A DNA stretch of 64,000 nucleotides from Shigella phage vB_SboS_Gloob. Below, one piece after another: positions 2,251 through 62,116 of the stretch (position 1 is its first letter; each line of letters opens with the position of its first letter). The DNA lies in the sequence record OL615011; one strand, given 5' to 3'. The notes beneath the pieces are model-generated. The model saw only the letters and a list, made by a program, of their open reading frames with translations, was not told the origin of the DNA and made no database searches. Position numbers and translations under genes: made by a program.

Positions 2251-2328
2251 GATGGCGTTCCTTATGTGGATTGTCGACTTGCAGCTCGCTTGAGCCTCCT
2301 GACAGGGGTTAAAAGATAAAGGGCACGT

Positions 2329-2339
2329 GGTATTTAGTG
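2329..2339 (-). promoter_or_regulatory. late-promoter-like motif CACTAAATACC upstream of the SLT-like gene
   Basis: Lies within a short palindrome in the 2251..2349 intergenic region. Confidence 0.4.
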
Positions 2340-2349
2340 CCCTTTGGCC

Positions 2350-8011: not shown

Positions 8012-8779
8012 ATGGCACCCCGCGCATATCGTTTCAGTCTCACCGCCCCGCAGATTGAGCAATTGCTCCTTTCTATCAATGATGCTATCAAGTCAGAAGA
8101 TATCATCTATGATTATGCTGCAGGTGGGACTGTTGGGCAAGTCGCAGCAGCGTCTGCCGTCAAGAACATGTGGTTGAAGCTCAACGAGATGGTAACAGGC
8201 CAAGGCCTCAAAGATGCCATCAACGCTGCAGAAGACAGCAACGTGTTCACCGACTATTATAAGTCTTTACTGGATCGCGAAGGCTGGAAATTTATTGGGT
8301 CTCCGGCAGATGAACTTGAGCGAGGCGACATCGACACCGCGAACTTCACGGGTGGTGAGGTCATTCTACTTCAGAAGAACGCTTCAGGCAACCCCGAATT
8401 CCAATACTGGAAGCGTACCCCGGTTGCTGGGGGTGATCCTACCTTTGCATGGGCTTCGGTCTATGAAGGGAACTCCAATGACTCTTCCATTGAGATCCCT
8501 GTGGTTGGCACCAGCGTACTCAAGGACATCCCCAAGGCGCTCTTCCATATGATCGAGTTCAGAGTGCATGTCTACGATGAGACACTGGGTCATTGGCAGG
8601 ACACCGACGGAAAAGTAGGGTATCGTGGCGAGGATCTGTTCTACAGCGTCTACAACCATGTTCAGACCAAACCTCTCGCCACCATTGACTTCAGTCAAGA
8701 CACAGATAGCATGACAGTCTCTGTTACTTCCCTGGAGCCGAATGTCAAATGCCATCTGTCGTTTATCGCTGGTTACTAA
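8012..8779 (+). CDS. hypothetical protein, probable late gene (one of few plus-strand genes)
   Basis: ORF track 7853..8779; start moved to MAPRAY preceded by AGAGGA. Confidence 0.5.
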   Translation: MAPRAYRFSLTAPQIEQLLLSINDAIKSEDIIYDYAAGGTVGQVAAASAVKNMWLKLNEMVTGQGLKDAINAAEDSNVFTDYYKSLLDREGWKFIGSPADELERGDIDTANFTGGEVILLQKNASGNPEFQYWKRTPVAGGDPTFAWASVYEGNSNDSSIEIPVVGTSVLKDIPKALFHMIEFRVHVYDETLGHWQDTDGKVGYRGEDLFYSVYNHVQTKPLATIDFSQDTDSMTVSVTSLEPNVKCHLSFIAGY

Positions 8780-16268: not shown

Positions 16269-18512
16269 TTAGATTTTGATCTCTTTCTCTGCCAGTTCGG
16301 CAGTGACCTTGTACTTCACACCATCCACTTCAACTTCCATGGTGGACTCTTCCAGGTCGAGGTCGGTGAACCAGCCGTGGCCAGCAACGATACCATAAAC
16401 CACTTTAGACAGCGTCTTGTTCAGGGCGCGGACTTCGGTGATGGCCGCCTTGGCAGCAGCGTCGATCCAGTTTTCGATCAGCTGTTTCTGTACGGCTTCA
16501 GGCACGGCAGTGATCGCAGGAGACTTCACGAATGCTTCGTATTCCTTCAGAGCATTGGCGATGAACAAGTCACCCGCATTGAGTTTCTTGTTCTCGGCAA
16601 TCTTCTTCTGTACTGCCGCGATGCTCGGCAGAGAAGACGCTCCAGCGATCTTAACGTTCAGCTCACGGCTCATGTAGACATCCGTGGAGTCCTTCAGTTC
16701 GGTCTTCGGTGAGAAGCCGTAATCACGGATGCCGTAGGAGGACAGGAACTCAGCCGCCTCAGCGCCGTACTGTACTGCCAGGCCTTTGGCGTTGCCTTTG
16801 CCAACCAGTTCATCACGGAAGAACTTCAGCACCTTCTGCTTGCCTTTCAGGGCTTCCAGACGGACATTATCCGCAAAGAACTGAGCAGCACTGATGTTCT
16901 TGACCATGGCGCGGTTGACCAGCGGTACGCTTTCCAGGTTCAGGACAAACACTTCCGGACCACCGAACACATGGACGCCCATCTGGCACAGATTGGTTAC
17001 AACTTCAACATCAGCCCTGAACGGCAGAGTCTTCACGTTGATGATGCCGTCTTTGACGATGGTGTAGTTGCGCCATTGGAAAGTATCCAGTTCTTCAGGC
17101 AGACCGAACTTCTTCTGCACGAACTCCGGAATCGCCACAGTGCCGTGCTGGACAGTGCGTACACTGATATTAGGGCGTTCGGAGTTATAGACCAAATCGC
17201 TGATTGGCACAACACCCAGATCGTTGGTAGGTTCGAACGTCGGGTTCCACTCTTCGTGCTCGGCCAGCTTGAGAGCCAGGGCTTTGCGCTCTTCTTTGGA
17301 CTCGGCGTTCGCGATCTGTTCTGCCAGCTTGTCTTCGGTATCGTCCAGTTTCTGAGCCGTACCGCGACCGATGCTCTTGTAGGAGAACATAGGATGTTTG
17401 GTGGCAACACACACGCCAGCTTCAGCCAGATACGTCAGCACGTCAACGACGGTCGTCGCATCTTCAGCCGGGACCAGGTCATAGTCAATACCGTCAACGC
17501 CGCGCAGCTGGTCATCAACGATGGCCTGGGTCAGATCAACTTTGATGTTGGAGTAGTCCTGCTTGGTGAAGCAGTTGCTGTACTGTTTGATGAAGCGGAC
17601 GTCGCCCGTTTTCTTCAGTGCAGCCCACACCAGGTCTGCGTCCATGATGTGTACGCCGTAGAACGCCAGCACGTATGCCGCCTGGATGTCCGCCAGCGCA
17701 TCAAGTTGGTCGATCATGTTAGGATTGACGACCCACAGCTTCGTGACGCTCTCAGGGATGCTCACGTGGCCAACGGGATGCTCTGCGTCTGCCTGTACCG
17801 CCAGAACAGTTGCTACGCCGTTTTCAACGTAGATGGCATGATCATACAGCAACGGAACATCAACAACCACCTTCGGAACTGAGGACTTCAGCACGGTTTC
17901 CAGCTCGGCCTGATACTCAACCTGACCTTCGGCAAACACGTGAGTCGCACCGGAGCGCTCAGACATCAGAGCCAGCAGTTCGCGGTTACAGTACCAGCCG
18001 TATTCGATGAAAGTGACGTTGTCGAACGCGGAAGGAAGTTTTTCGGCGGTGTCCAGGATCTCATTGGAGCGCCAGCAGTTGTCATAACCATCGGTCATGA
18101 ACGCCAGGTTGTTGACGTAGCCGGGTTTCTTCAGGTCACGCGCAGTATCCATCGCCAGTTTCAATGGCTCAACAAAACCAGTACAGCCGGACGGTTGTAG
18201 GAAGCGGTCGATCAGTTTGTTCAGCTCGCTCAGGTCAGATGCTGCACTAACCTGACGGCCAGCGAACACAGTACCAAAGTCGCCACGGGATGAGAAATAC
18301 AGAACACTCACAGTGTCTTCCGGTTTCACCAGAGAAGGCAGGTTCTCCTTCAGATGCTTACGGACTTCAGGGAGCGCCCGGTACATTGAACCGGAAATGT
18401 CTACAACGATTACATGGTTGGACGGAGCAGCAGTCGCAACCACATTCTTAAATTCTAATGATTCAATCATTGTTCTCTTCGCCTTTTGCGTAAGGGTTAA
18501 GTTCAGACTCAT
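16269..18512 (-). CDS. large protein with N-terminal von Willebrand factor A (vWA) domain
   Basis: MIDAS motif VVVDISGSM near the N-terminus; 747 aa. Confidence 0.5.
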   Translation of the reverse strand: MSLNLTLTQKAKRTMIESLEFKNVVATAAPSNHVIVVDISGSMYRALPEVRKHLKENLPSLVKPEDTVSVLYFSSRGDFGTVFAGRQVSAASDLSELNKLIDRFLQPSGCTGFVEPLKLAMDTARDLKKPGYVNNLAFMTDGYDNCWRSNEILDTAEKLPSAFDNVTFIEYGWYCNRELLALMSERSGATHVFAEGQVEYQAELETVLKSSVPKVVVDVPLLYDHAIYVENGVATVLAVQADAEHPVGHVSIPESVTKLWVVNPNMIDQLDALADIQAAYVLAFYGVHIMDADLVWAALKKTGDVRFIKQYSNCFTKQDYSNIKVDLTQAIVDDQLRGVDGIDYDLVPAEDATTVVDVLTYLAEAGVCVATKHPMFSYKSIGRGTAQKLDDTEDKLAEQIANAESKEERKALALKLAEHEEWNPTFEPTNDLGVVPISDLVYNSERPNISVRTVQHGTVAIPEFVQKKFGLPEELDTFQWRNYTIVKDGIINVKTLPFRADVEVVTNLCQMGVHVFGGPEVFVLNLESVPLVNRAMVKNISAAQFFADNVRLEALKGKQKVLKFFRDELVGKGNAKGLAVQYGAEAAEFLSSYGIRDYGFSPKTELKDSTDVYMSRELNVKIAGASSLPSIAAVQKKIAENKKLNAGDLFIANALKEYEAFVKSPAITAVPEAVQKQLIENWIDAAAKAAITEVRALNKTLSKVVYGIVAGHGWFTDLDLEESTMEVEVDGVKYKVTAELAEKEIKI

Positions 18513-20444: not shown

Positions 20445-21295
20445 TTTACACGTCCTGTATTTTCAGTTTTGAAAGGAAGGCCGTCGGTGGTGATATTCTC
20501 CCACCAGACAGTGTCGGCATACACAGCATCATAGATCCCGTCGAAAACAGAGAGACCTTTGCTGAAGATGCCATGGGTGACGAAGAGCGTCATGTGCTTA
20601 GGCTCGTGCTTCTGAAGCTCTTTACCCAGCTCAACAAACGTGCGCCCGCCATCGCAGATATCATCAACCACCACCAGATAGCGGTCTTTGATCAGTTCAG
20701 GGTTTGTAATGCTCACCCCAATGATCTCACCAGTCTTGGTGTCACGGTTCTTGTGGCCGTAGACAACAGGAACACCATCCAACGACAGGCTGAGGGCTTC
20801 GGTCTTCTTCGCCGCGCCGCCGTCAGGGGCTACTAGCACAGCGTTGTTCCCACGGATGAACCAGCCCAGATACTGCCGCACGATGTAATCTTGCGGGACA
20901 ACATGGACGTTGTTGATCAGAGAAGACACGACATGGCTGTGAGGGTCTTTGATCGCCACGCGGTCAAAGTTCATGCTATTGATGAACTCAGCCGCCCACT
21001 TCACGGACAGAGGCTCGCCGAAGTCGCAATGGCGGTCCTGGCGAGCATACGGGAAGTAAGGGATATACGCATGGAAGGTCGTCAGACGGTCCACGTTACC
21101 CAGGCCGCGCACGGCGTTTACCAGAAGCGCCAGCTCAATGAAGTCGGCTGATGATTTGATGTGGGCATCAATCACAACCGTCTGAATCTTACCGACAGGA
21201 ATACCAGCCTTTTGGATCTTGATATGTTCCTCACCACCTGGGAAGGTGAAGTGTTTGTAGAACACATCTTGGTCGTTCAATTTCAAACGAAACAT
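20441..21295 (-). CDS. ribose-phosphate pyrophosphokinase (PRPP synthetase) family enzyme; candidate ADP-ribose pyrophosphate synthetase
   Basis: IPYFPYARQDRH and VVVDDICDGGRT match Prs motifs; ATGA overlap with the NAMPT-like gene. Confidence 0.8.
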   Translation of the reverse strand: MFRLKLNDQDVFYKHFTFPGGEEHIKIQKAGIPVGKIQTVVIDAHIKSSADFIELALLVNAVRGLGNVDRLTTFHAYIPYFPYARQDRHCDFGEPLSVKWAAEFINSMNFDRVAIKDPHSHVVSSLINNVHVVPQDYIVRQYLGWFIRGNNAVLVAPDGGAAKKTEALSLSLDGVPVVYGHKNRDTKTGEIIGVSITNPELIKDRYLVVVDDICDGGRTFVELGKELQKHEPKHMTLFVTHGIFSKGLSVFDGIYDAVYADTVWWENITTDGLPFKTENTGRVK

Positions 21296-31430: not shown

Positions 31431-31451
31431 ACAAAATCTCCCAAGATATAT

Positions 31452-31462
31452 GGGGTATTTAG
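31452..31462 (-). promoter_or_regulatory. late-promoter-like motif CTAAATACCCC upstream of uvsW
   Basis: Minus-strand CTAAATACCCC about 22 nt upstream of the uvsW ATG, followed by GGGAGA. Confidence 0.5.
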
Positions 31463-33885: not shown

Positions 33886-34614
33886 TTACTTCAGGGCGCT
33901 CTTCAGATTATCAGAACCTATGTTGTTGATAACGCCACCAGCGCACAGGTCTTTAGCCCACTCAGACAGTACATTGGCGAACGAGAAGTTCAGACACTTG
34001 CTGACCATGTCTTGGATGTGGGCTAACTCTGAGGCAATACCATTGGCGATATCCTGACCGATTTGCGCCACCTGAGCAATAGCATCGTTGATATATCCGG
34101 TAACTTCGGCGGCCAGCGCCTGGATCTTTGCTAGGCCAGCGCTTACGCCCTGCGCAACTAACTCAGCCAGTTCGGCCATCTTGGCAGTAACAGTGCTGAG
34201 AGCACCCTCCATAGCCCCGATCCACTGGCGCCCAAGAGTCTGTATGACGCCGAAGGCATTGTTGATCAGATCACAGTTGGTCGGCTCGCGCTCGATTGAC
34301 TTCAGGCCAGATTTGTACGACACGGAAGTCCCGATGCGGGAATACGCTTCGTTCACAGTCTGATCACCATAGTTGTTCAGCGTGGTGAGGCTGGTGTCGG
34401 CAGAGGTGAACATCGTGTTCGTTTCATTGAGTTTGGCTGTGGTTAGACCGCCTGCCGTCAGAGCGCCCTGGATTTGCGTATTTCCGGTGTTTGCCAGTGC
34501 AGCTGTAGTCGCCTTGCCGCTGGTGATTAAACCCTGAGACGTGCTGCTGAGGGACGGGAGAGGATTGTTAAATGCGTTACCCTGCTCAAGGGCGTCATAG
34601 ATCTGTGCGTTCAT
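33886..34614 (-). CDS. hypothetical protein, probable late gene
   Basis: Late-promoter-like motif upstream; alternative ATG at 34629. Confidence 0.5.
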   Translation of the reverse strand: MNAQIYDALEQGNAFNNPLPSLSSTSQGLITSGKATTAALANTGNTQIQGALTAGGLTTAKLNETNTMFTSADTSLTTLNNYGDQTVNEAYSRIGTSVSYKSGLKSIEREPTNCDLINNAFGVIQTLGRQWIGAMEGALSTVTAKMAELAELVAQGVSAGLAKIQALAAEVTGYINDAIAQVAQIGQDIANGIASELAHIQDMVSKCLNFSFANVLSEWAKDLCAGGVINNIGSDNLKSALK

Positions 34615-34636
34615 AGAAAATACCCCCATGGATGAT

Positions 34637-34648
34637 GGGGGTATTTAG
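34637..34648 (-). promoter_or_regulatory. late-promoter-like motif CCTAAATACCCCC within a 12-bp inverted repeat
   Basis: Promoter motif is one arm of the palindrome AAATACCCCCAT / ATGGGGGTATTT that also contains the first ATG. Confidence 0.45.
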
Positions 34649-34861
34649 GGGATCATGGCAGTTTGTAAACGAAGTTGGACCAGAACTTGCGAGCGAACTT
34701 CTTGGCATAGACCTTCCAGTCGGCGTATTCGCCCTCCTTCAGGTCATTGTAGGTCTCGAACCCTACTGCTCCCAAGAAGTACGCCGTGAAGATATAGCAG
34801 AACAGATTGACGACAAACATGATGTATCTCCGCTGTGTGAACTCAAATTATTTATGGTATG

Positions 34862-35634: not shown

Positions 35635-35703
35635 GGTAAAGTCCTCTATTTGTAGGGGATAGGGTATGCGCTTAACATACCCCGTTCAAAGGTTTAGAAC
35701 AAA

Positions 35704-36012
35704 TCAAGAAAAATTGAACTTGTTGTCAACGAAGGTCAGGCGGGAGCATACTTCTTCAACTGCATCAACCATCATAAAATCTTTGAATGCTTCATGCAAG
35801 GCATTCAGGAAGGAAGCTGGGACTAAACCACAAGCCGGGTTGTCAAACAGAGCTGAAGCAACTACTGCGTTGTAAGTTGAATCAGGAGTAGCAGACTGGC
35901 ACAACATCATGGCTTCAGCGTTCTTTACCGCATGGTATTTAAAGGTGTTAACCACAGTGGTTTTGTTGGATTTTGCCAGTTGAGCTTCGAATTGTTCTTT
36001 GGTGATTGTCAT
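35704..36012 (-). CDS. hypothetical protein
   Basis: ORF track 35704..36033; same upstream cassette as the gene at 519..890. Confidence 0.5.
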   Translation of the reverse strand: MTITKEQFEAQLAKSNKTTVVNTFKYHAVKNAEAMMLCQSATPDSTYNAVVASALFDNPACGLVPASFLNALHEAFKDFMMVDAVEEVCSRLTFVDNKFNFS

Positions 36013-36731: not shown

Positions 36732-37172
36732 TCAGCTAATGCGGAACAGATGTGGATAACCACCAGGATGGCCCTGACCCGTAACGAACACATCGAACTT
36801 AGATCCTTTGATCAGGCCGGGGAGATTACCAGAGTCCAGCAGTTCGCGGATCTGATCCATCGCCAGCATCCAGTTCTTAGCAGGTTCAGCTTCAGCCTCT
36901 CCACGATTGAGGACGAGTTCACCTTCAGAATAATACTTCCCGCTGTCTTTCATATAGTACAGCTTGATATGGATGTACTGAGGGGACGGGACCAAACGCC
37001 AGCCATCGTCAATCAGATCCTGGCGATCATTATCCAGGGACTGGTAATCGATCTCACCAGACGCCAGACCATAGCTGCGCATGTAGCGGAACTTCTCAAC
37101 ACGGTCTTTTACGTCAGAGATGAAGAACTCCTTCGTGGCAGGACTGATGAAAATGTATTTCTCTTTTGACAT
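36732..37172 (-). CDS. hypothetical protein
   Basis: ORF track 36732..37193; start moved to the ATG preceded by AGGAAGG and CTATATC. Confidence 0.5.
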   Translation of the reverse strand: MSKEKYIFISPATKEFFISDVKDRVEKFRYMRSYGLASGEIDYQSLDNDRQDLIDDGWRLVPSPQYIHIKLYYMKDSGKYYSEGELVLNRGEAEAEPAKNWMLAMDQIRELLDSGNLPGLIKGSKFDVFVTGQGHPGGYPHLFRIS

Positions 37173-37414: not shown

Positions 37415-37474
37415 GGCACAGCCCTCGGATAGTAGACGGGGCAATAATACCTCTCGCCCCGTTATTGAAAACTG

Positions 37475-37675: not shown

Positions 37676-37734
37676 TGTGATTTCCTCGATTAATAGAGAG
37701 GGTATTATTACCCTCATGCAATCTTTGAAACTCT

Positions 37735-38067: not shown

Positions 38068-38159
38068 GATTTGTACTCCTGTTGTATGGTTGACTGTACA
38101 AGCATACAACAGGCAGGTGTATTGAACAACGCGGGTATTAAATCGACACGATAAAGGAA

Positions 38160-38387: not shown

Positions 38388-38440
38388 GATGGCCTCCAAT
38401 TAGTTTGGCACATCATATAGCGAATCCCCATAATGAAAAA

Positions 38441-38456
38441 CCCCGCCGAAGCGGGG
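38441..38456 (-). terminator. rho-independent terminator downstream of the major capsid gene
   Basis: ccccgccgaagcgggg stem flanked by an A-run and a T-run. Confidence 0.6.
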
Positions 38457-38479
38457 TTTTGTAGGACCAGCCTGTTAGA

Positions 38480-43700: not shown

Positions 43701-43730
43701 GATTAAGTCCTCAACATTTTCTTGTAATTA

Positions 43731-43759
43731 GTGCTGGGGGAATAAGATTCCCCCAGCAC
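43731..43759 (-). terminator. hairpin between the tail tube and portal genes
   Basis: gtgctgggggaataagattcccccagcac stem-loop; no clear T-run. Confidence 0.35.
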
Positions 43760-43767
43760 TGAGGACA

Positions 43768-49920: not shown

Positions 49921-50571
49921 TTATTCTCCAAAGTCGATCTTCATCTTGTCTACTGCAAGCCCCTTCTCAAGCACATCCGCCAAAGCATTGTCGGTCTGCA
50001 GAGAAGAATCCTTGTACACGTCCGGTTCGTTCTCTTCGTCCAAGATGGACAGACGTTTGTCGATATCGTCGATCTCCGGAACGCCTGTATCGAAGTTTTC
50101 GTTGCCGTACTGGAACAACGTGCACGGCAGAGAGAACGTATACCATTTGCCAAATTGCATGAAGTCTTCATCGTTGTTTGGGTTGTTGACCTTGAAGATC
50201 TTGTTCGCCAGGGGCAGGTAGATCAGGTCACCTTCCTGAGGTTGTTGTTCAATCCCAACACCGTTGCCTATCACCTCAGCAAAGCGACGGCGCGAGATAG
50301 AGAACGTCACCTCATCCTGTAGATTAATACCCCCGAACTTCTCCCACATCTGGGTGTTGAAGCCCTGGTAATCCTGCATGTAAACTTCGATGTCGAACGC
50401 TTGGTCGAATCGATGGTTTGCATCGTTGGTAACTGGGAATTTTTCAACGATGGAACGTGGTATATACTTGACGTCTATCCCACGCAACTGAATCATTTCT
50501 TGCACCAAATCTTCAATCAGCTTCTGTGTGCCTTGGTGATTGGTGGCGTTGAAATATTTTGAAGTGGCCAT
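49921..50571 (-). CDS. 14: neck protein (T4 gp14-like)
   Basis: EMIQLRGIDVKYIPRS and EGDLIYLPLANKIFKVN match T4 gp14. Confidence 0.85.
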   Translation of the reverse strand: MATSKYFNATNHQGTQKLIEDLVQEMIQLRGIDVKYIPRSIVEKFPVTNDANHRFDQAFDIEVYMQDYQGFNTQMWEKFGGINLQDEVTFSISRRRFAEVIGNGVGIEQQPQEGDLIYLPLANKIFKVNNPNNDEDFMQFGKWYTFSLPCTLFQYGNENFDTGVPEIDDIDKRLSILDEENEPDVYKDSSLQTDNALADVLEKGLAVDKMKIDFGE

Positions 50572-50591
50572 ATCGATACCCTCAATTTTGA

Positions 50592-50603
50592 AGGTATTTA
50601 GTC
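50592..50603 (-). promoter_or_regulatory. late-promoter-like motif GACTAAATACCTT upstream of the gp14-like gene
   Basis: Read on the minus strand about 20 nt upstream of the ATG, followed by GAGGG. Confidence 0.45.
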
Positions 50604-57168: not shown

Positions 57169-59631
57169 TTAGTTGACAGAATCCAGCATCGACAAACATT
57201 TCAGCTGAACTTGCACAACACTTTCGTTGGTCACGGCTGGAACAGTCAACCCAGATGCAGATATGCCGAAATTCGCTATGAAGCCTGTGGTCTGACTCCG
57301 CACGACATCTGTACCCGTGCCGCTCCCACCGTTGCAAGCAAACTGGGTCTGTTTCGAACCGAAAGCATCACCATTACCACTTACACATAACTGCCAAACT
57401 CCGCGAGGAAGAGTTCCCGGTATTGTTATGGAAGCCGCCCCCGCAGGCCTGGTGAATTTAATATTTTCAAAGAAAATAGTATCTTCAATTGTAGCCGTGT
57501 TTCGTGTTCCGAAACTCAGTGCCTGGTTTCCAACAAAACTGATGGATGTGCGACTGTCAAGAACAAAGCTAGACAAAAGCCCAGTCTGTGCTGTGACGTT
57601 ACAGTCGACGATGTTGCCGTGTGCAGTGACCGCTTTCGGAATACCCTGAATTTTGTAACCAACAGTCCGGTAATTCAGAGAAAGGTTATTCAATTGTTTA
57701 ACAGTATTCCCGATCATCTTGACTTTCTGGCCGCGATAAACCTGACCAGAAGTTGCCCCCGCATTAACGCAAATCCCCTCCGTTTTGTTATTAGAGGTAT
57801 TGCATTTCATGACCACGGTATTATGGCTGATGTCTATATCGTTGTAAACAAAGTACGAGCTGTCCCCCGCACCAGTTGCTATGGAAACACCGTCGACAGA
57901 ACGGAGTTCGCAATAGTTGTTTAGCACTTTCACGAAAGGTTCAGGATAAGTTGTGCTCGTGGGTTCACCCCCGCCCCCGACGTCGATAGACCTGGTATAC
58001 TTCGCCCCAATCAATGGACCCGTGGTCTCACTGTCTGGAATGTCGCGAGAACGGACGTAGTTGTTTGCAATTATCAGGTTATACGGCTCATAATTTGGAC
58101 TCCAGCCGACGCCACATTTGGCATAAATACCCACAACGCCGTGTTCTAAACATTGGTTTCCCGTGATGATCGCTTGTCCACCACCATGGAAATCAATACA
58201 TTTTCTACGACAATTTTGGATCTGATTGTTGGTGACTGTAACGTTTCTGACTCGGCGGTTTCGGCCGTGTGTAATGCCATACCCAGGGTCATAACTGGCG
58301 TTGACCAAGTCATCACCGGATGGATGCCCGATATCATTAATGACGTTGGCGTCGTAGTTCAGGCGATAACCAGATAGCACATAAATGCCGCCACTGTAGC
58401 ATTTACTGATAGTAGAATTGACCACCAAAATACCGTTCGGTACGTCTGAATCCACGGTGTAGTCGGCTGTCCCATAAGCAACAGCGGCGTTCCTGATACC
58501 GATACCAACCCCAGCAAAGTTGAATCCGGTTATATGACAGTTATTAATCAAAATGCCACGACATGCTCTCTGCACTTTAATCCCACACGCCCAGCTTCCG
58601 ATGTAACCACCAAGGAAAGTGCCCCAAGTGCTCCTCCAACCCGCAATTTGGGTGCCTGCGGAGTCGTAGGAAGGGAACTGCCCAGATACACCAGAATAAG
58701 CACCACTAGTGTAAGCAGAACTGTCAACTGAATTGTTGGGTCCTGTGATTTGAGCTGAATCATACCCAAAGCCAGTTTCACCTTTCTCTGCATACCCGGT
58801 GGTTGGGTCTATCGCTGGGAAAATGCTGGGTCCGGTTATCGTCAGTTGCACAGTAACGTTTTCACAATTAACTAATGATAAAGCGTCAAGTCCGTGTGTA
58901 TTGACTTTAATCGAACCATTGAATACCTTTATCCCTTTCTTGTTCACGAGCGCTAAACAAGGGCTGAAGTTTCTTGTTCCATCAGAAAAGTCAGATTCAC
59001 CGGGATATTTGTTAGCCAACGCAGGATTTTTGGACACGAGGTAATTTCCTCCACCCAAATTCAAATCCCCAGAAACTGATTCAAAGAAAGCTTGGAGGGC
59101 TAACGTGTCGTCCGTGCTACCATCACCGATAGCACCGAAGTCTTTTGGAGTCAAAATTCTTTTGGCTGGGTTAGATTGTAAAACCCAGGTAGAAGAAGAA
59201 ATGCCTCCTGTGTTAGAGACTGTGTCGTTCGCCGATACCGTCTTCGGCAGAGAACCCGCCCAACGATACAATTCCTTCCCGTCACTCACCAATTCGTTCT
59301 TGACGCGGATAGTGAATCCAGACGTAAAGTTTTCGACCAGAGTAACGAACTCCCCACGTATTACAGCCAAAGCACCCAGGTCGACAGTGCCCGTATTGTG
59401 TACAAGAATGCCGTCTGTCAGGCTGGTGATGGTAGCGCCAGCAGGCAGGTTAGAAGGTAGTGCATAGGAGCGCTGAGTGACCTTATCGTAGATTACCTTG
59501 TAACCAGTCAGGGTGGAACCTGGTTTAGCATACAGAACTTCGGACTTCTTGCATCCAAACTTGCGAGCAATGGAGTCCTTGTTTGTCTCTTTGGAGACAG
59601 AGCCTTTCGGCTGTGAAAATTGCGGATTCAT
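57169..59631 (-). CDS. tailspike protein A with pectate-lyase-like right-handed beta-helix
   Basis: DFGAIGDGSTDDTLALQ motif after the shared YRWAGSLPKTV...TGGI...W segment; ORF track 57169..59670, start moved to the ATG preceded by AGGAGA. Confidence 0.7.
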   Translation of the reverse strand: MNPQFSQPKGSVSKETNKDSIARKFGCKKSEVLYAKPGSTLTGYKVIYDKVTQRSYALPSNLPAGATITSLTDGILVHNTGTVDLGALAVIRGEFVTLVENFTSGFTIRVKNELVSDGKELYRWAGSLPKTVSANDTVSNTGGISSSTWVLQSNPAKRILTPKDFGAIGDGSTDDTLALQAFFESVSGDLNLGGGNYLVSKNPALANKYPGESDFSDGTRNFSPCLALVNKKGIKVFNGSIKVNTHGLDALSLVNCENVTVQLTITGPSIFPAIDPTTGYAEKGETGFGYDSAQITGPNNSVDSSAYTSGAYSGVSGQFPSYDSAGTQIAGWRSTWGTFLGGYIGSWACGIKVQRACRGILINNCHITGFNFAGVGIGIRNAAVAYGTADYTVDSDVPNGILVVNSTISKCYSGGIYVLSGYRLNYDANVINDIGHPSGDDLVNASYDPGYGITHGRNRRVRNVTVTNNQIQNCRRKCIDFHGGGQAIITGNQCLEHGVVGIYAKCGVGWSPNYEPYNLIIANNYVRSRDIPDSETTGPLIGAKYTRSIDVGGGGEPTSTTYPEPFVKVLNNYCELRSVDGVSIATGAGDSSYFVYNDIDISHNTVVMKCNTSNNKTEGICVNAGATSGQVYRGQKVKMIGNTVKQLNNLSLNYRTVGYKIQGIPKAVTAHGNIVDCNVTAQTGLLSSFVLDSRTSISFVGNQALSFGTRNTATIEDTIFFENIKFTRPAGAASITIPGTLPRGVWQLCVSGNGDAFGSKQTQFACNGGSGTGTDVVRSQTTGFIANFGISASGLTVPAVTNESVVQVQLKCLSMLDSVN

Positions 59632-59664
59632 AACGAATCTCCTGTTGTTATTCTCAATGGAAAG

Positions 59665-59687
59665 CCCCACTTAGTTAATAAGTGGGG
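59665..59687 (-). terminator. hairpin between tailspike genes B and A
   Basis: ccccacttagttaataagtgggg stem-loop in the intergenic region. Confidence 0.4.
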
Positions 59688-59709
59688 AAAGGAAAGGTGT
59701 AAAATTAAT

Positions 59710-61932
59710 TTAAGAAGATGCAGACCATTGTGGCATGCTGAGTGTCCACTTACCAATTGACGTCCAATAAGTAGCAGTAAATGTAGCAGTCTTAGTTGTG
59801 GCAGTATTCGCACCCGTAACATCAACAGGAACACCTGCAAAACTCAAAGATGCAATGTTACTACCACGAACCAACATATTAATTTTTTGCCCGTTATACG
59901 GTGTTCCAGACACTGTGATATTCAAACCGGAAGTCACATTTAGATAATATAATGCGTATCCCTGTCGGACATCTATAGGAAGTGTTCCAGCTGTATATTG
60001 TGCAAAGGATTGTGTACCACGGTCTACAGCCAAGCCGTCTGTGTTACCTATTGGGATAACGGTTCCGCCAGGGAATGCCCTAGCCCTTGGAATATAGGCG
60101 TAACATTGGCTTGCCCCAGAGAAATCAAACCAACGGGTTCTCAGTCCATTATTAGGAGCATGGATCACAGCCCCAACACAACCACGACCTCGATACATAC
60201 AGTCACCGATGGAATGACTATGATTTATACCGGCACAATAAAAGTCCCGGCTTCCTCCGCTTAGGTTGATATCAGCAATATCATTACGCTCAAAGTACAT
60301 TCCGTAGACGTTTGTTCCGTCTGCGCTGTCGTAAAGTCCAAACTGACTGGTGTTCTGGCTAAATCCACCTGTAATGCACACGGCAGATGTGGAAAAGGTA
60401 TTCACGTAATCGACATCAGTGCTTCCGTCAGTGCTGTTAAAAACTACGATGCCATAATCGCACTTGTTAGCAGGGTCGCCAGAGTATCCTCGATGGTCTT
60501 TAATCGTAATAGCATTCGGGCCATTAAGGACAAACAGACGTTTACCACCTATTCCACCGTTCAAAACCTCAGAGTTAGATATAATAACCCCATAACTCAT
60601 AAACTCGATTCTAATTCCGGTGTTTCCTGTTCCTAGCCCCATATCAATCCAAGGGTCGAAAACACCAGTGTTGTTTCTGGCGCTGTATAAATGCAAGCCG
60701 ATACAGTTGTTAAACCCAGAAAGGTCAATACGTATATCGTGAGTCTTACAGTTTCGAATAAAGGCGCTATTAACGTCTAATGAAGAAGCTCGTGCTACAG
60801 TGACTCCATCCGCCCCAGCTTTAATTTTTGCATTGGGATGGAAAAATACTTGGGTGTTCTGACCGAATTTAATGGTTTCTGCTGCCGTTGATACGGTGTA
60901 GTCTCCTGCATTGAAATAAATCCCACCACCAGCGGCCAAAATTGTGTTGATTTCCGCGTTGGTCATCGTCGGATAGATGTTTTTCAACGGGAAAACGCCG
61001 GTTTTAACGGCATAATCATCGAAAATAGTACCACCATACCCGCTGCCAATTAATTTAGTTCCTATATCAGAAGCCAATTGGTCACGTAAAGAATTTTGGT
61101 CTACTCGTACCCAAGCATCAACATCAATACCACCAGTGGTAACTGGAGTAGATCCGGCTACCACAGTTTTAGGCAGCGTGCCTGCCCAACGATACAATTT
61201 ACCTTCTGCCTTATATCCGACAGACTGAGAAGCCGTAATAACAGTAGCACCAGCTTCAAACGTGCCTACCATAGGCAAACCAGATTCGGCAGCTAATCGA
61301 CTCAGGATAGGATCGAGAGCACCACTGAAATTACCAGAGGCTTGTTTAAGTGTATTAATCTCCTCTTGCACCGTCTGCCCAGAAGACGTACCAATCAGAC
61401 TTGCTCCTCCATCGGAAGAGAGCGCCAGGTAATTTTGTTTGATGGACATCTCGGCCACGACCCAAACCCCAGCCGCTGGTGAACCTGTAAGGAAACTCAC
61501 AACTCCTGTTGTGCTATTGTAGGTGTAGTCAACCCCAGGAACCTGGAACTTACCATCGATATACAGGGTCTGCACACCATATGTGGTGAAGTCGGGTGTG
61601 AACGTTGTTTCGTTGCCAACGGCCTGGAACTTGTAGATTCGGATCCCGTTTTCATAATCTTCTGGGGACAGGATCTTGTCAAACAGACAGTACACAACGT
61701 CTTCTGGTTCAAGAGATCGACCGAGGTTGACAGTGTTACCATCGATTTCATAATTGTCGACAGGAACCTGGACGCCGCCGTTGATGGTGATGAAGCCCGT
61801 AACAGGATAGAACGGGAGGGAGATAAACGTCTCTCCGCCCGTTGCGGTATAAGTGTATGGAATCTGGTGCGGGGCTGTTACAACCGCTCCAAAGATACTC
61901 TCGACGTTTCTGGTCATTTGAAGATACCCCAT
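59710..61932 (-). CDS. tailspike protein B
   Basis: Contains the shared KLYRWAGTLPKTV...TTGGIDVDAW segment; alternative ATG 15 nt downstream. Confidence 0.65.
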   Translation of the reverse strand: MGYLQMTRNVESIFGAVVTAPHQIPYTYTATGGETFISLPFYPVTGFITINGGVQVPVDNYEIDGNTVNLGRSLEPEDVVYCLFDKILSPEDYENGIRIYKFQAVGNETTFTPDFTTYGVQTLYIDGKFQVPGVDYTYNSTTGVVSFLTGSPAAGVWVVAEMSIKQNYLALSSDGGASLIGTSSGQTVQEEINTLKQASGNFSGALDPILSRLAAESGLPMVGTFEAGATVITASQSVGYKAEGKLYRWAGTLPKTVVAGSTPVTTGGIDVDAWVRVDQNSLRDQLASDIGTKLIGSGYGGTIFDDYAVKTGVFPLKNIYPTMTNAEINTILAAGGGIYFNAGDYTVSTAAETIKFGQNTQVFFHPNAKIKAGADGVTVARASSLDVNSAFIRNCKTHDIRIDLSGFNNCIGLHLYSARNNTGVFDPWIDMGLGTGNTGIRIEFMSYGVIISNSEVLNGGIGGKRLFVLNGPNAITIKDHRGYSGDPANKCDYGIVVFNSTDGSTDVDYVNTFSTSAVCITGGFSQNTSQFGLYDSADGTNVYGMYFERNDIADINLSGGSRDFYCAGINHSHSIGDCMYRGRGCVGAVIHAPNNGLRTRWFDFSGASQCYAYIPRARAFPGGTVIPIGNTDGLAVDRGTQSFAQYTAGTLPIDVRQGYALYYLNVTSGLNITVSGTPYNGQKINMLVRGSNIASLSFAGVPVDVTGANTATTKTATFTATYWTSIGKWTLSMPQWSASS

Positions 61933-61949
61933 AGAGGATTTGCCAATAT

Positions 61950-61962
61950 GGGGTATTTAGTG
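61950..61962 (-). promoter_or_regulatory. late-promoter-like motif CACTAAATACCCC upstream of tailspike B
   Basis: Motif forms one arm of an inverted repeat (ATACCCCAT / ATGGGGTAT) that includes the first ATG. Confidence 0.5.
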
Positions 61963-61971
61963 AATGGATAA

Positions 61972-61987
61972 GGAGTCGCAGGACTCC
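61972..61987 (-). terminator. hairpin downstream of tailspike gene C
   Basis: ggagtcgcaggactcc stem-loop just upstream of the late-promoter motif. Confidence 0.4.
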
Positions 61988-62116
61988 CACTTGTTTTATA
62001 TGATTACGAATTTACCCAGGCTGATATCGTTAATCAGCGTAGCCACTATGTTTGCCAGTTGGGTGGTTGTTAACGTGTTCACATGACCACGCAATTGCTG
62101 GCTACAACAATGATTG

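Follow-up and report, generated by a model that had tools for sequence, protein, structure and literature searches.

Late promoters embedded in inverted repeats of Shigella phage vB_SboS_Gloob: a probable RNA switch of the T4 gene e type

In a 64,000-nt stretch of Shigella phage vB_SboS_Gloob (record OL615011; hereafter the window), two late-promoter motifs lie within perfect inverted repeats just ahead of genes, one encoding a 242-aa late protein (site 1) and the other a tailspike (site 2). What is a promoter doing in one arm of a hairpin whose other arm holds the gene's ribosome-binding site and, in both cases, an extra ATG? A first-pass annotation, made from the sequence alone, had suggested a DNA cruciform or protein-binding site, or a means of choosing between two start codons. 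We consider it probable that these repeats are instead an RNA switch of the type known at T4 gene e, a late promoter embedded in a hairpin that masks the ribosome-binding site. The evidence points to on/off control by transcript origin rather than a choice between two ATGs, a mechanism related in spirit to the start-codon idea. The T4 mechanism is already known; the Ackermannviridae would be a new example of it. The inverted-repeat feature itself is real, recurrent and conserved.

The window is that of an Agtrevirus (Ackermannviridae), about 98% identical to Salmonella phage SKML-39. Over roughly 2 kb around site 1, identity to SKML-39, Shigella phage Ag3 and other relatives in the genus is 96–98%, and this 2-kb stretch matches 211 phage records, chiefly of Kuttervirus, Limestonevirus and Agtrevirus. 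The motif CTAAATAcCcc is one of two regulatory motifs typical of ViI-like phages (PMC7283392). All ten occurrences of CTAAATA in the window are on the coding (minus) strand, and seven of them stand 25–50 nt upstream of the start codons of late-type genes: those for the tailspike, a 1612-aa protein of unknown function (PHROGs), head closure, tail sheath, scaffold, the 242-aa protein and a UvsW-like helicase. The SKML-39 genome has genes for a gp55-like late sigma factor, a gp33-like late-promoter regulator and a sliding clamp (gp45 homologue). The CBA120 genome paper reports such genes likewise in CBA120, ViI and Ag3; the late promoter had not yet been identified at that time, in 2011. Because the motif precedes structural genes and relatives encode gp55, gp33 and clamp homologues, the reading of TAAATA as a T4-like late −10 box of the gp55 type is well founded, and the promoter assignment of the first-pass annotation stands. 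A gp55-type late promoter with no −35 element, directly upstream in a phage with gp55, gp33 and gp45, is one mark of the T4 type of switch; judged by sequence alone, it is present here.

Site 1 lies in a part of the genome where the minus strand is the direction of the genes, and all window features given below are on that strand. It reads CTAAATACCCCCAT-catcc-ATGGGGGTATTT-tct-ATG. The late-promoter motif is an exact match (CTAAATACCCC, 34638–34648), with TAAATA as its T4-like −10 box. An exhaustive inverted-repeat scan returned a perfect repeat at 34618–34646 with a 12-bp stem and a 5-nt loop, made up of a 5' arm at 34635–34646 (AAATACCCCCAT), a loop at 34630–34634 and a 3' arm at 34618–34629 (ATGGGGGTATTT), confirming the earlier description of a motif in a perfect inverted repeat together with an ATG. 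Within the 3' arm are a Shine-Dalgarno (SD) sequence, GGGGG (34623–34627), 8 nt upstream of the real start codon, and an upstream ATG (34627–34629), the by-product of a CAT complement. The gene spans 33886–34614, with its real start ATG at 34614–34612; its 242-aa product is the orthologue of SKML-39 gp031 (phrog_2114, function unknown). Upstream, a co-oriented 55-aa open reading frame (ORF; 34653–34820) has its stop codon 4 nt before the motif.

Site 2 reads CTAAATACCCCATA-ttggcaaatcctc-TATGGGGTAT-cttcaa-ATG. Here the same motif CTAAATACCCC (61950–61960) is kept in five relatives whose upstream flanks are mutually unrelated. The perfect repeat, at 61924–61956, has a 5' arm at 61947–61956 (ATACCCCATA), a loop at 61934–61946 and a 3' arm at 61924–61933 (TATGGGGTAT); the 3' arm includes the SD sequence GGGG (61927–61930) and a by-product ATG (61930–61932). 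The tailspike gene (735 aa, 59710–61917) has its real start ATG at 61917–61915. The inverted repeat with motif and ATG is thus real at this second locus too; its earlier dimensions of 9 bp and a 15-nt loop were nearly right, and the scan gives a stem of 10 bp and a loop of 13 nt. As predicted RNA folds, the hairpins of site 1 (−17.2 kcal/mol, z −3.48) and site 2 (−16.3 kcal/mol, z −4.23) were each matched by 0 of 200 shuffles. Both share the layout of the T4 type, a promoter in the 5' arm of a stable hairpin and the SD and/or start codon in the 3' arm.

We propose the following mechanism. The 5' arm would be the late promoter from AAATA on (the TAAATA box), together with its pyrimidine-rich tail cCcc and the CAT that follows; the 3' arm would be the initiation region, ATG-GGGG(G)-TAT(TT), with a G-rich SD and an end 1–6 nt before the start codon. 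Transcripts entering from upstream, whether from early, middle or other late operons, would carry both arms and fold into a 9–15-bp hairpin that buries the SD, leaving the gene untranslated; where the site is U-rich, as site 1 is, some of them may also terminate. Transcripts made by late RNA polymerase would start about 5–7 nt after TAAATA, at the A after the C-run, and with no 5' arm would present an open ribosome-binding site and be translated. Probably, then, only transcripts started at the embedded promoter are translated. That the motif works as a late promoter, where its +1 lies, that there is read-through and that translation is repressed are all points that we infer.

T4 late promoters lie about one helical turn upstream of the transcription start. 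With that spacing, +1 is predicted near A34636 at site 1 and near 61948–61949 at site 2, and late RNA would keep at most 2–3 nt of the 5' arm. When leaders are trimmed to begin at the predicted +1, their folds (−4.6 and −3.7 kcal/mol) are no more stable than those of shuffled sequences. Read-through is plausible at site 1. The 55-aa ORF upstream stops 4 nt before the motif and is the last of a cluster of small genes with matches to TTCAAT-N14-TATAAT in their intergenic gaps, putative promoters that could supply read-through transcripts into site 1. This σ70-like motif of the ViI family, with up to two mismatches allowed, has 20 matches in the window against 3.8 expected, among them 38412–38437, 38101–38126, 37704–37729, 37444–37469 and 35693–35718. 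Several of the matches fall in gaps between the small genes that separate the major capsid gene from site 1, a cluster that looks like an early unit embedded among late genes.

The same logic has been described in T4. In early and middle transcripts of genes e, soc, 49 and I-TevI, the ribosome-binding site is hidden in a helix; transcripts from late promoters immediately upstream do not include the 5' strand of that helix and are translated well. The class takes in T4 soc, 49, I-TevI/II/III, segB and Aeh1 mobE (PMC3014915; PMC2988022). The likeness extends to detail. In the T4 gene e leader (TATAAATACCTTCTATAAATACTTAGGAGGTATTATG; TATAAATACCTTC...GGAGGTATTATG; predicted fold −14.9 kcal/mol), AATACCTTC pairs with GGAGGTATT, and these arms are nearly identical to those ahead of the SKML-39 endolysin gene, AAATACCTTCGCA and TGCGGAGGTATTT (L066 ~21125–21170); the endolysins themselves have 164 aa in T4 and 264 aa in SKML-39. 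In both systems a run of pyrimidines, placed directly after a TAAATA-type late promoter, pairs with the SD, a TAT(T) after the SD pairs with the promoter ATA, the start codon comes a few nucleotides past the stem, and a co-oriented gene lies upstream. Even gene functions are shared, the endolysin corresponding to T4 e and a Holliday-junction resolvase to T4 gene 49. There are also differences. The phages belong to Ackermannviridae rather than to Straboviridae, as T4 does; the promoter consensus is CTAAATAcCcc rather than the T4 TATAAATA with an AT-rich stretch after it; loops are up to about 21 nt long; and use of the device is broader, at about 8–9 of 26 candidate sites, including tailspike, head-closure and virion genes, compared with a handful of T4 genes in PMC3014915 and PMC2988022. 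In the family studied here, the device is predicted from sequence. No description of such hairpins in ViI-like phages turned up in the literature we searched, in which the genome papers gave no hairpin analysis.

Could the hairpin instead select between two starts, giving long and short isoforms? Both 3' arms do contain an ATG (34629–34627 and 61932–61930), and at both loci a second in-frame ATG follows exactly 15 nt on (34614 and 61917), just as the first-pass annotation had noted; the ORFs would be of 247 or 242 aa at site 1 and 740 or 735 aa at site 2. For the tailspike, the upstream ATG is in frame in all five relatives sampled, which are few and close. At site 1, however, it is absent from 14 of 18 relatives (AATTGGGGG), out of frame in three (16 nt) and in frame in the closest relative only. 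For the equivalent ATG of the resolvase gene, the distance to the start puts it out of frame in Agtrevirus (13 nt) and in frame in other genera (12 nt). No SD precedes the upstream ATG at site 1 or site 2; the only SD-like element is the G-run, 8–9 nt before the second ATG. It is the second ATG that is annotated as the start in SKML-39, the MNAQIYDA start of the 242-aa protein is conserved among relatives, and the solved CBA120 tail-fiber protein (PDB 6w4q) begins MTRNVE, which corresponds to the second ATG and aligns to query residue 6. Two isoforms would call for two starts that are both conserved, in frame and each provided with a ribosome-binding site, and we did not find this. The upstream ATG arises because it is the complement of the CAT that follows the promoter C-run; set against the relatives' sequences, it is a passive by-product and not a conserved start. 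On the comparison with relatives at site 1 and the resolvase we rejected the two-start idea, to which we give almost no credence.

The first-pass annotation had tied its own case to other late genes, where lack of the arrangement would count against it; the arrangement is present at further late genes. A third example in the window precedes the head-closure (Hc2) gene, at 50576–50601, where the motif CTAAATACCTT (50591–50601) lies ahead of a start codon at 50571 and the arms are ATACCTTCA (50589–50597) and TGAGGGTAT (50576–50584). The leader, CTAAATACCTTCA-aaat-TGAGGGTAT-cgat-ATG, has a predicted fold of −11.2 kcal/mol (z −3.56), and the hairpin is kept in most relatives. In predicted read-through RNA the SD is fully paired at sites 1 and 2 and at this one. 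A fourth and weak example is at the UvsW-like helicase gene (31434–31462; motif CTAAATACCCC, start codon 31430), where AAAT..CCCA pairs with TGGG..ATTT in an interrupted hairpin. There, as at gp181 of SKML-39, the gene upstream (for the helicase, an exonuclease gene) ends with the motif's own TAA as its stop codon. Over the whole window there are 16 perfect inverted repeats (stem of at least 9 bp, loop of 3–20 nt) compared with 3.35 ± 1.5 in shuffles, and three of the 16 contain one of the ten CTAAATA sites. A scan with Rfam gave no match at gathering threshold anywhere in the window.

The whole genome of SKML-39 gives a broader view. It has 26 genes with TAAATA 25–75 nt upstream, and hairpins between promoter zone and initiation zone were found at about 8–9 of these. 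They are gp001 (tailspike, 10 bp, ATACCCCATA / TATGGGGTAT), gp008 (head closure, 9 bp, ATACCTTCA / TGAGGGTAT), gp031 (the 242-aa protein of site 1, 12 bp, AAATACCCCCAT / ATGGGGGTATTT), gp036 (helicase, interrupted and weak, 8 bp, AAAT..CCCA / TGGG..ATTT), gp088 (endolysin, 13 bp, AAATACCTTCGCA / TGCGGAGGTATTT), gp103 (RuvC-like Holliday-junction resolvase, 13 bp, TAAATAGCCCATA / TATGGGCTATTTA) and three hypothetical genes: gp181 (11 bp, perfect core AATATCCTC / GAGGATATT), gp204 (10 bp, core with one G-U, TATCTTCA / TGGAGATA) and gp207 (15 bp, perfect core AAATACCCCTA / TAGGGGTATTT). By direct reading, the 3' arm ends 1–6 nt before the start codon whatever the loop length (4 to about 21 nt). 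A comparison of gene tables shows a co-oriented nearest upstream gene at seven of the nine hairpin sites.

Pairing across these sites exceeds chance. Summed over the 26 sites, there were 181 pairs compared with 109 ± 16 when the leader was shuffled and the promoter held fixed, and 0 of 300 shuffles reached the observed value. Arm sequences vary by gene (ACCCCCAT, ACCTTCGCA, AGCCCATA, ATCCTC, ACCCCTA), and duplexes of cognate arms averaged −7.5 kcal/mol compared with −4.4 kcal/mol for swapped, non-cognate pairs (permutation p < 5e-5). The cognate leader was the best partner at 6 of 26 sites, and when set against all 208 leaders it ranked first or second for six sites. We regard this swap of duplex energies as a better statistic than the association of the motif with an SD followed by TAT, which was modest (odds ratio 4.9, p = 0.003) because that pentamer is not rare. 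Accessibility was scored on the SD core, since averages over −18 to +3 were uninformative. The predicted probability that the core is unpaired was 0.00–0.03 in read-through RNA at eight of the nine hairpin sites, and 0.25–0.50 in RNA starting 6 nt after TAAATA, with the resolvase as an exception (0.08); for the site 1 orthologue the two values were 0.00 and 0.25, the latter for late-length RNA.

Comparison of relatives tells which part of the hairpins is held constant. Among 18 IMG/VR relatives with 63–99% protein identity, the site 1 arms TAAATACCCCCA and TGGGGGTATTT are invariant; the loop varies across genera in both length and sequence (CATCATCCA, TCAAT, AAAT). Invariant arms make sites 1 and 2 uninformative here, and evidence that pairing is under selection has to come from other sites. 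The resolvase hairpin of Agtrevirus has one additional G:C pair, with a G added to the 5' arm and its partner C to the 3' arm, and one lineage (L100) has changed ATAAC/GTTAT to ATATC/GATAT, swapping an A-U pair for U-A; all versions fold at −17 to −23 kcal/mol. This pairing was judged from per-sequence folds, with no formal counting of pairs, the MAFFT alignment having misplaced the gap in the left arm. The endolysin hairpin has 98.7% of its cells paired across genera, with three positions at which the only variation is between G-C and G-U. Because the changes run through G-U, its sense-strand RNA is more stable than the antisense, as was the case in six of six distinct sequences. At the helicase site, two relatives (L041 and L054) have a C-to-T change in the motif that improves its pairing to the 3' arm. 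As in the T4 type, then, the resolvase and endolysin hairpins conserve pairing rather than sequence.

Several points nonetheless weigh against an RNA switch. Two of them would serve equally well a view in which the hairpins have no selected function, a C-rich promoter tail and a G-rich SD with an AT-rich spacer being conserved independently and complementary by chance: part of the complementarity is free because the C-rich tail pairs with the G-rich SD, such that a CCCC/GGGG core is expected from the two consensus sequences by themselves, and sites 1 and 2, whose arms vary little or not at all, show no covariation. SD followed by TAT is also found at 15 genes without the motif. Such a coincidence seems improbable to us, as the stems reach 10–15 bp, well past CCCC/GGGG, are gene-specific and match only their own partner; they exceed shuffles in which the promoter is held fixed; double-sided changes keep the resolvase pairing; and at site 1 loops drift and arms stay fixed. 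The other adverse points bear on the switch directly. Placing the late RNA start inside or after the 5' arm depends on T4 spacing, and late-length leaders are predicted to be only 25–50% open at the SD. A terminator-like hairpin lies just upstream of site 2, and therefore read-through there may be low; gp008 and gp204 have their closest upstream neighbor on the opposite strand. The helicase hairpin (−7.5 kcal/mol, z −0.97) is not significant alone, and the tail sheath, scaffold and 1612-aa protein genes have no such hairpin at their motifs, making the device gene-specific. Our search of the literature on Ackermannviridae and CBA120 found no transcription-start, RNA-seq or translation data.

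Do the repeats act as DNA? The perfect palindromes at sites 1 and 2 and the resolvase, equally stable on both strands, would fit a cruciform or a palindromic binding site through which a phage regulator acts on late promoters. Divergent late promoters in SKML-39 also form TAAATA/TATTTA repeats: gp109/gp110 (L066 ~36936–36990) and gp141/gp142 (L067 ~8480–8530) are pairs of divergent late genes on either side of one short spacer, in which opposed TAAATA boxes make an inverted repeat. Yet the arms outside TAAATA are not common to the sites, their spacing varies (4 to about 21 nt), and the position of the 3' arm goes with the start codon and not with the promoter. G-U pairs in the endolysin, head-closure and helicase stems become A-C mismatches on the other strand, the sense strand being the more stable. 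Variable loops, gene-specific arms, G-U pairs that work only in sense RNA and a 3' arm that tracks the SD and start codon argue for control of initiation at the RNA level, and against the cruciform or protein-binding site of the first-pass annotation; we rate a DNA-level element as very unlikely. Phage N4 offers another association of promoter and inverted repeat. Promoters of its virion RNA polymerase are short DNA hairpins (5–7-bp stem, 3-nt loop) read by a phage-encoded RNA polymerase. The hairpins studied here differ in having loops of 4 to about 21 nt, gene-specific arms and T4-like late machinery (gp55, gp33 and gp45 homologues).

A more serious competitor is termination. The hairpins could be mainly intrinsic terminators or 3'-end stabilisers of the upstream unit, with the overlapping late promoter restarting transcription and the masking of the ribosome-binding site incidental. 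U-rich tails do follow the GC core at site 1 (AUGGGGGU then AUUUUCUA), at the endolysin gene (AUUUUCUU) and at the Kuttervirus resolvase gene (AUUUUUAU), and a layout of A-tract, GC stem and U-tract is typical of terminators; site 1 resembles bidirectional Rho-independent terminators in its A-rich 5' flank, GC core and U-rich 3' flank. Most of the promoter hairpins differ from these, with no U-tract, long loops and the SD of the next gene always inside. By reading, U-tracts are poor at six of the nine sites, such as site 2 (AUCUUCAA, 13-nt loop), gp008 (AUCGAUAU), gp181 and gp204. Against a standard of a GC stem, a loop of 3–8 nt and at least five U in eight, site 1 has 5/8 U after its GC core and was not called by the terminator scan; site 2 falls short, with its 13-nt loop and 3/8 U. 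Among the matches listed from an IMG/VR scan for AAATACCCC-N(4–30)-GGGGTAT, that pairing is common in unrelated viral contigs, often on both strands; many of these are generic terminator-like palindromes, and the scan was uninformative. T4 gene e, with the same arms, is documented as a translational device. Further, a terminator has no reason for a 3' arm that always holds the SD and ends 1–6 nt before the start codon, and this counts against termination as the main role. We think that role unlikely. As the sole explanation it was rejected, most sites having no U-tracts; it is kept as a possible second role at site 1, where termination and masking of the ribosome-binding site can coexist.

There are also clear terminator-like hairpins with TAAATA in the loop, which count in favor of the terminator reading. 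One, at window positions 2318–2345, reads AAAGGGCAC-CTAAATACCAC-GTGCCCTTT followed by atctttt, the loop being a one-mismatch version of the motif (CTAAATACCAC). The same design of a promoter in a terminator loop is found at SKML-39 gp074 and gp080; the gp080 leader (L066 ~17310–17355) reads CCCCC-TAAATACA-GGGGG then atttcttttct. The 2318–2345 hairpin may be a variant with the promoter inside a terminator, in which a transcript born at the loop promoter would be without the 5' arm and so escape termination.

Three further observations concern inverted repeats away from these sites. After a 443-aa ORF, which probably encodes the major capsid protein, positions 38437–38460 read AAAACCCCGC-ttcg-GCGGGGTTTT, a symmetric A-tract/U-tract hairpin with a UUCG loop that probably serves as a bidirectional terminator at the end of the head-gene operon. 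Of all perfect inverted repeats in the window, the longest (AGTGCTGGGGGAAT-ctt-ATTCCCCCAGCACT, 43730–43760; 14-bp stem, 3-nt loop) falls between a 177-aa ORF and a downstream 563-aa ORF, the portal protein in SKML-39, and has neither U-tract nor late motif. For gp066/gp067, another pair of divergent late genes in SKML-39, the complement of one gene's promoter (TAAATATCCC) is the SD region of the other (GGGATATTTA).

The tailspike genes show how the elements are arranged in a module. Promoter, hairpin, leader and the first ~190 codons are kept as a block in five relatives compared with window positions 61915–62080, and the DNA just upstream is unrelated in each phage; this suggests that the block from promoter to N-terminus moves as a unit in tailspike exchange. 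A second SKML-39 tailspike gene, gp002, has a leader (L065 ~2670–2727) with TAAATACCA and then a CCCCCTC-ttcg-GAGGGG hairpin, and its SD is outside the hairpin. The equivalent leader in the window (59630–59710) has a different hairpin, CCCCACTTA-ttaac-TAAGTGGGG, and no late motif.

We raise, more tentatively, a wider reading that we would not yet favor: Ackermannviridae late promoters may be self-insulating cassettes throughout the genome, with the cCcc of the motif largely an anti-Shine-Dalgarno sequence (instead of, or besides, a promoter element), the promoter lying in an RBS-masking 5' arm or a terminator loop in about a third of late units, and the cassette traveling with tailspike modules. 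In that case, only transcripts born at the embedded promoter would escape silencing or termination, and tailspike exchange of a cassette of promoter, hairpin, leader and N-terminal anchor domain would ensure correct late expression in whatever genomic context it lands. Confirmation of the switch itself would lend a function to the C-rich half of the late-promoter consensus of this family, and would caution annotators against taking the upstream ATG of such hairpins for a start codon. For engineering, tailspike swaps or payloads placed beside these promoters should keep both arms or remove both. If the switch is real, lysis timing through the endolysin, DNA resolution through the resolvase and the supply of tailspikes would be set by translation as well as by transcription, and the post-transcriptional control known from T4 would extend to a second family of large phages, one used in biocontrol and therapy (ViI, CBA120, LIMEstone and relatives).

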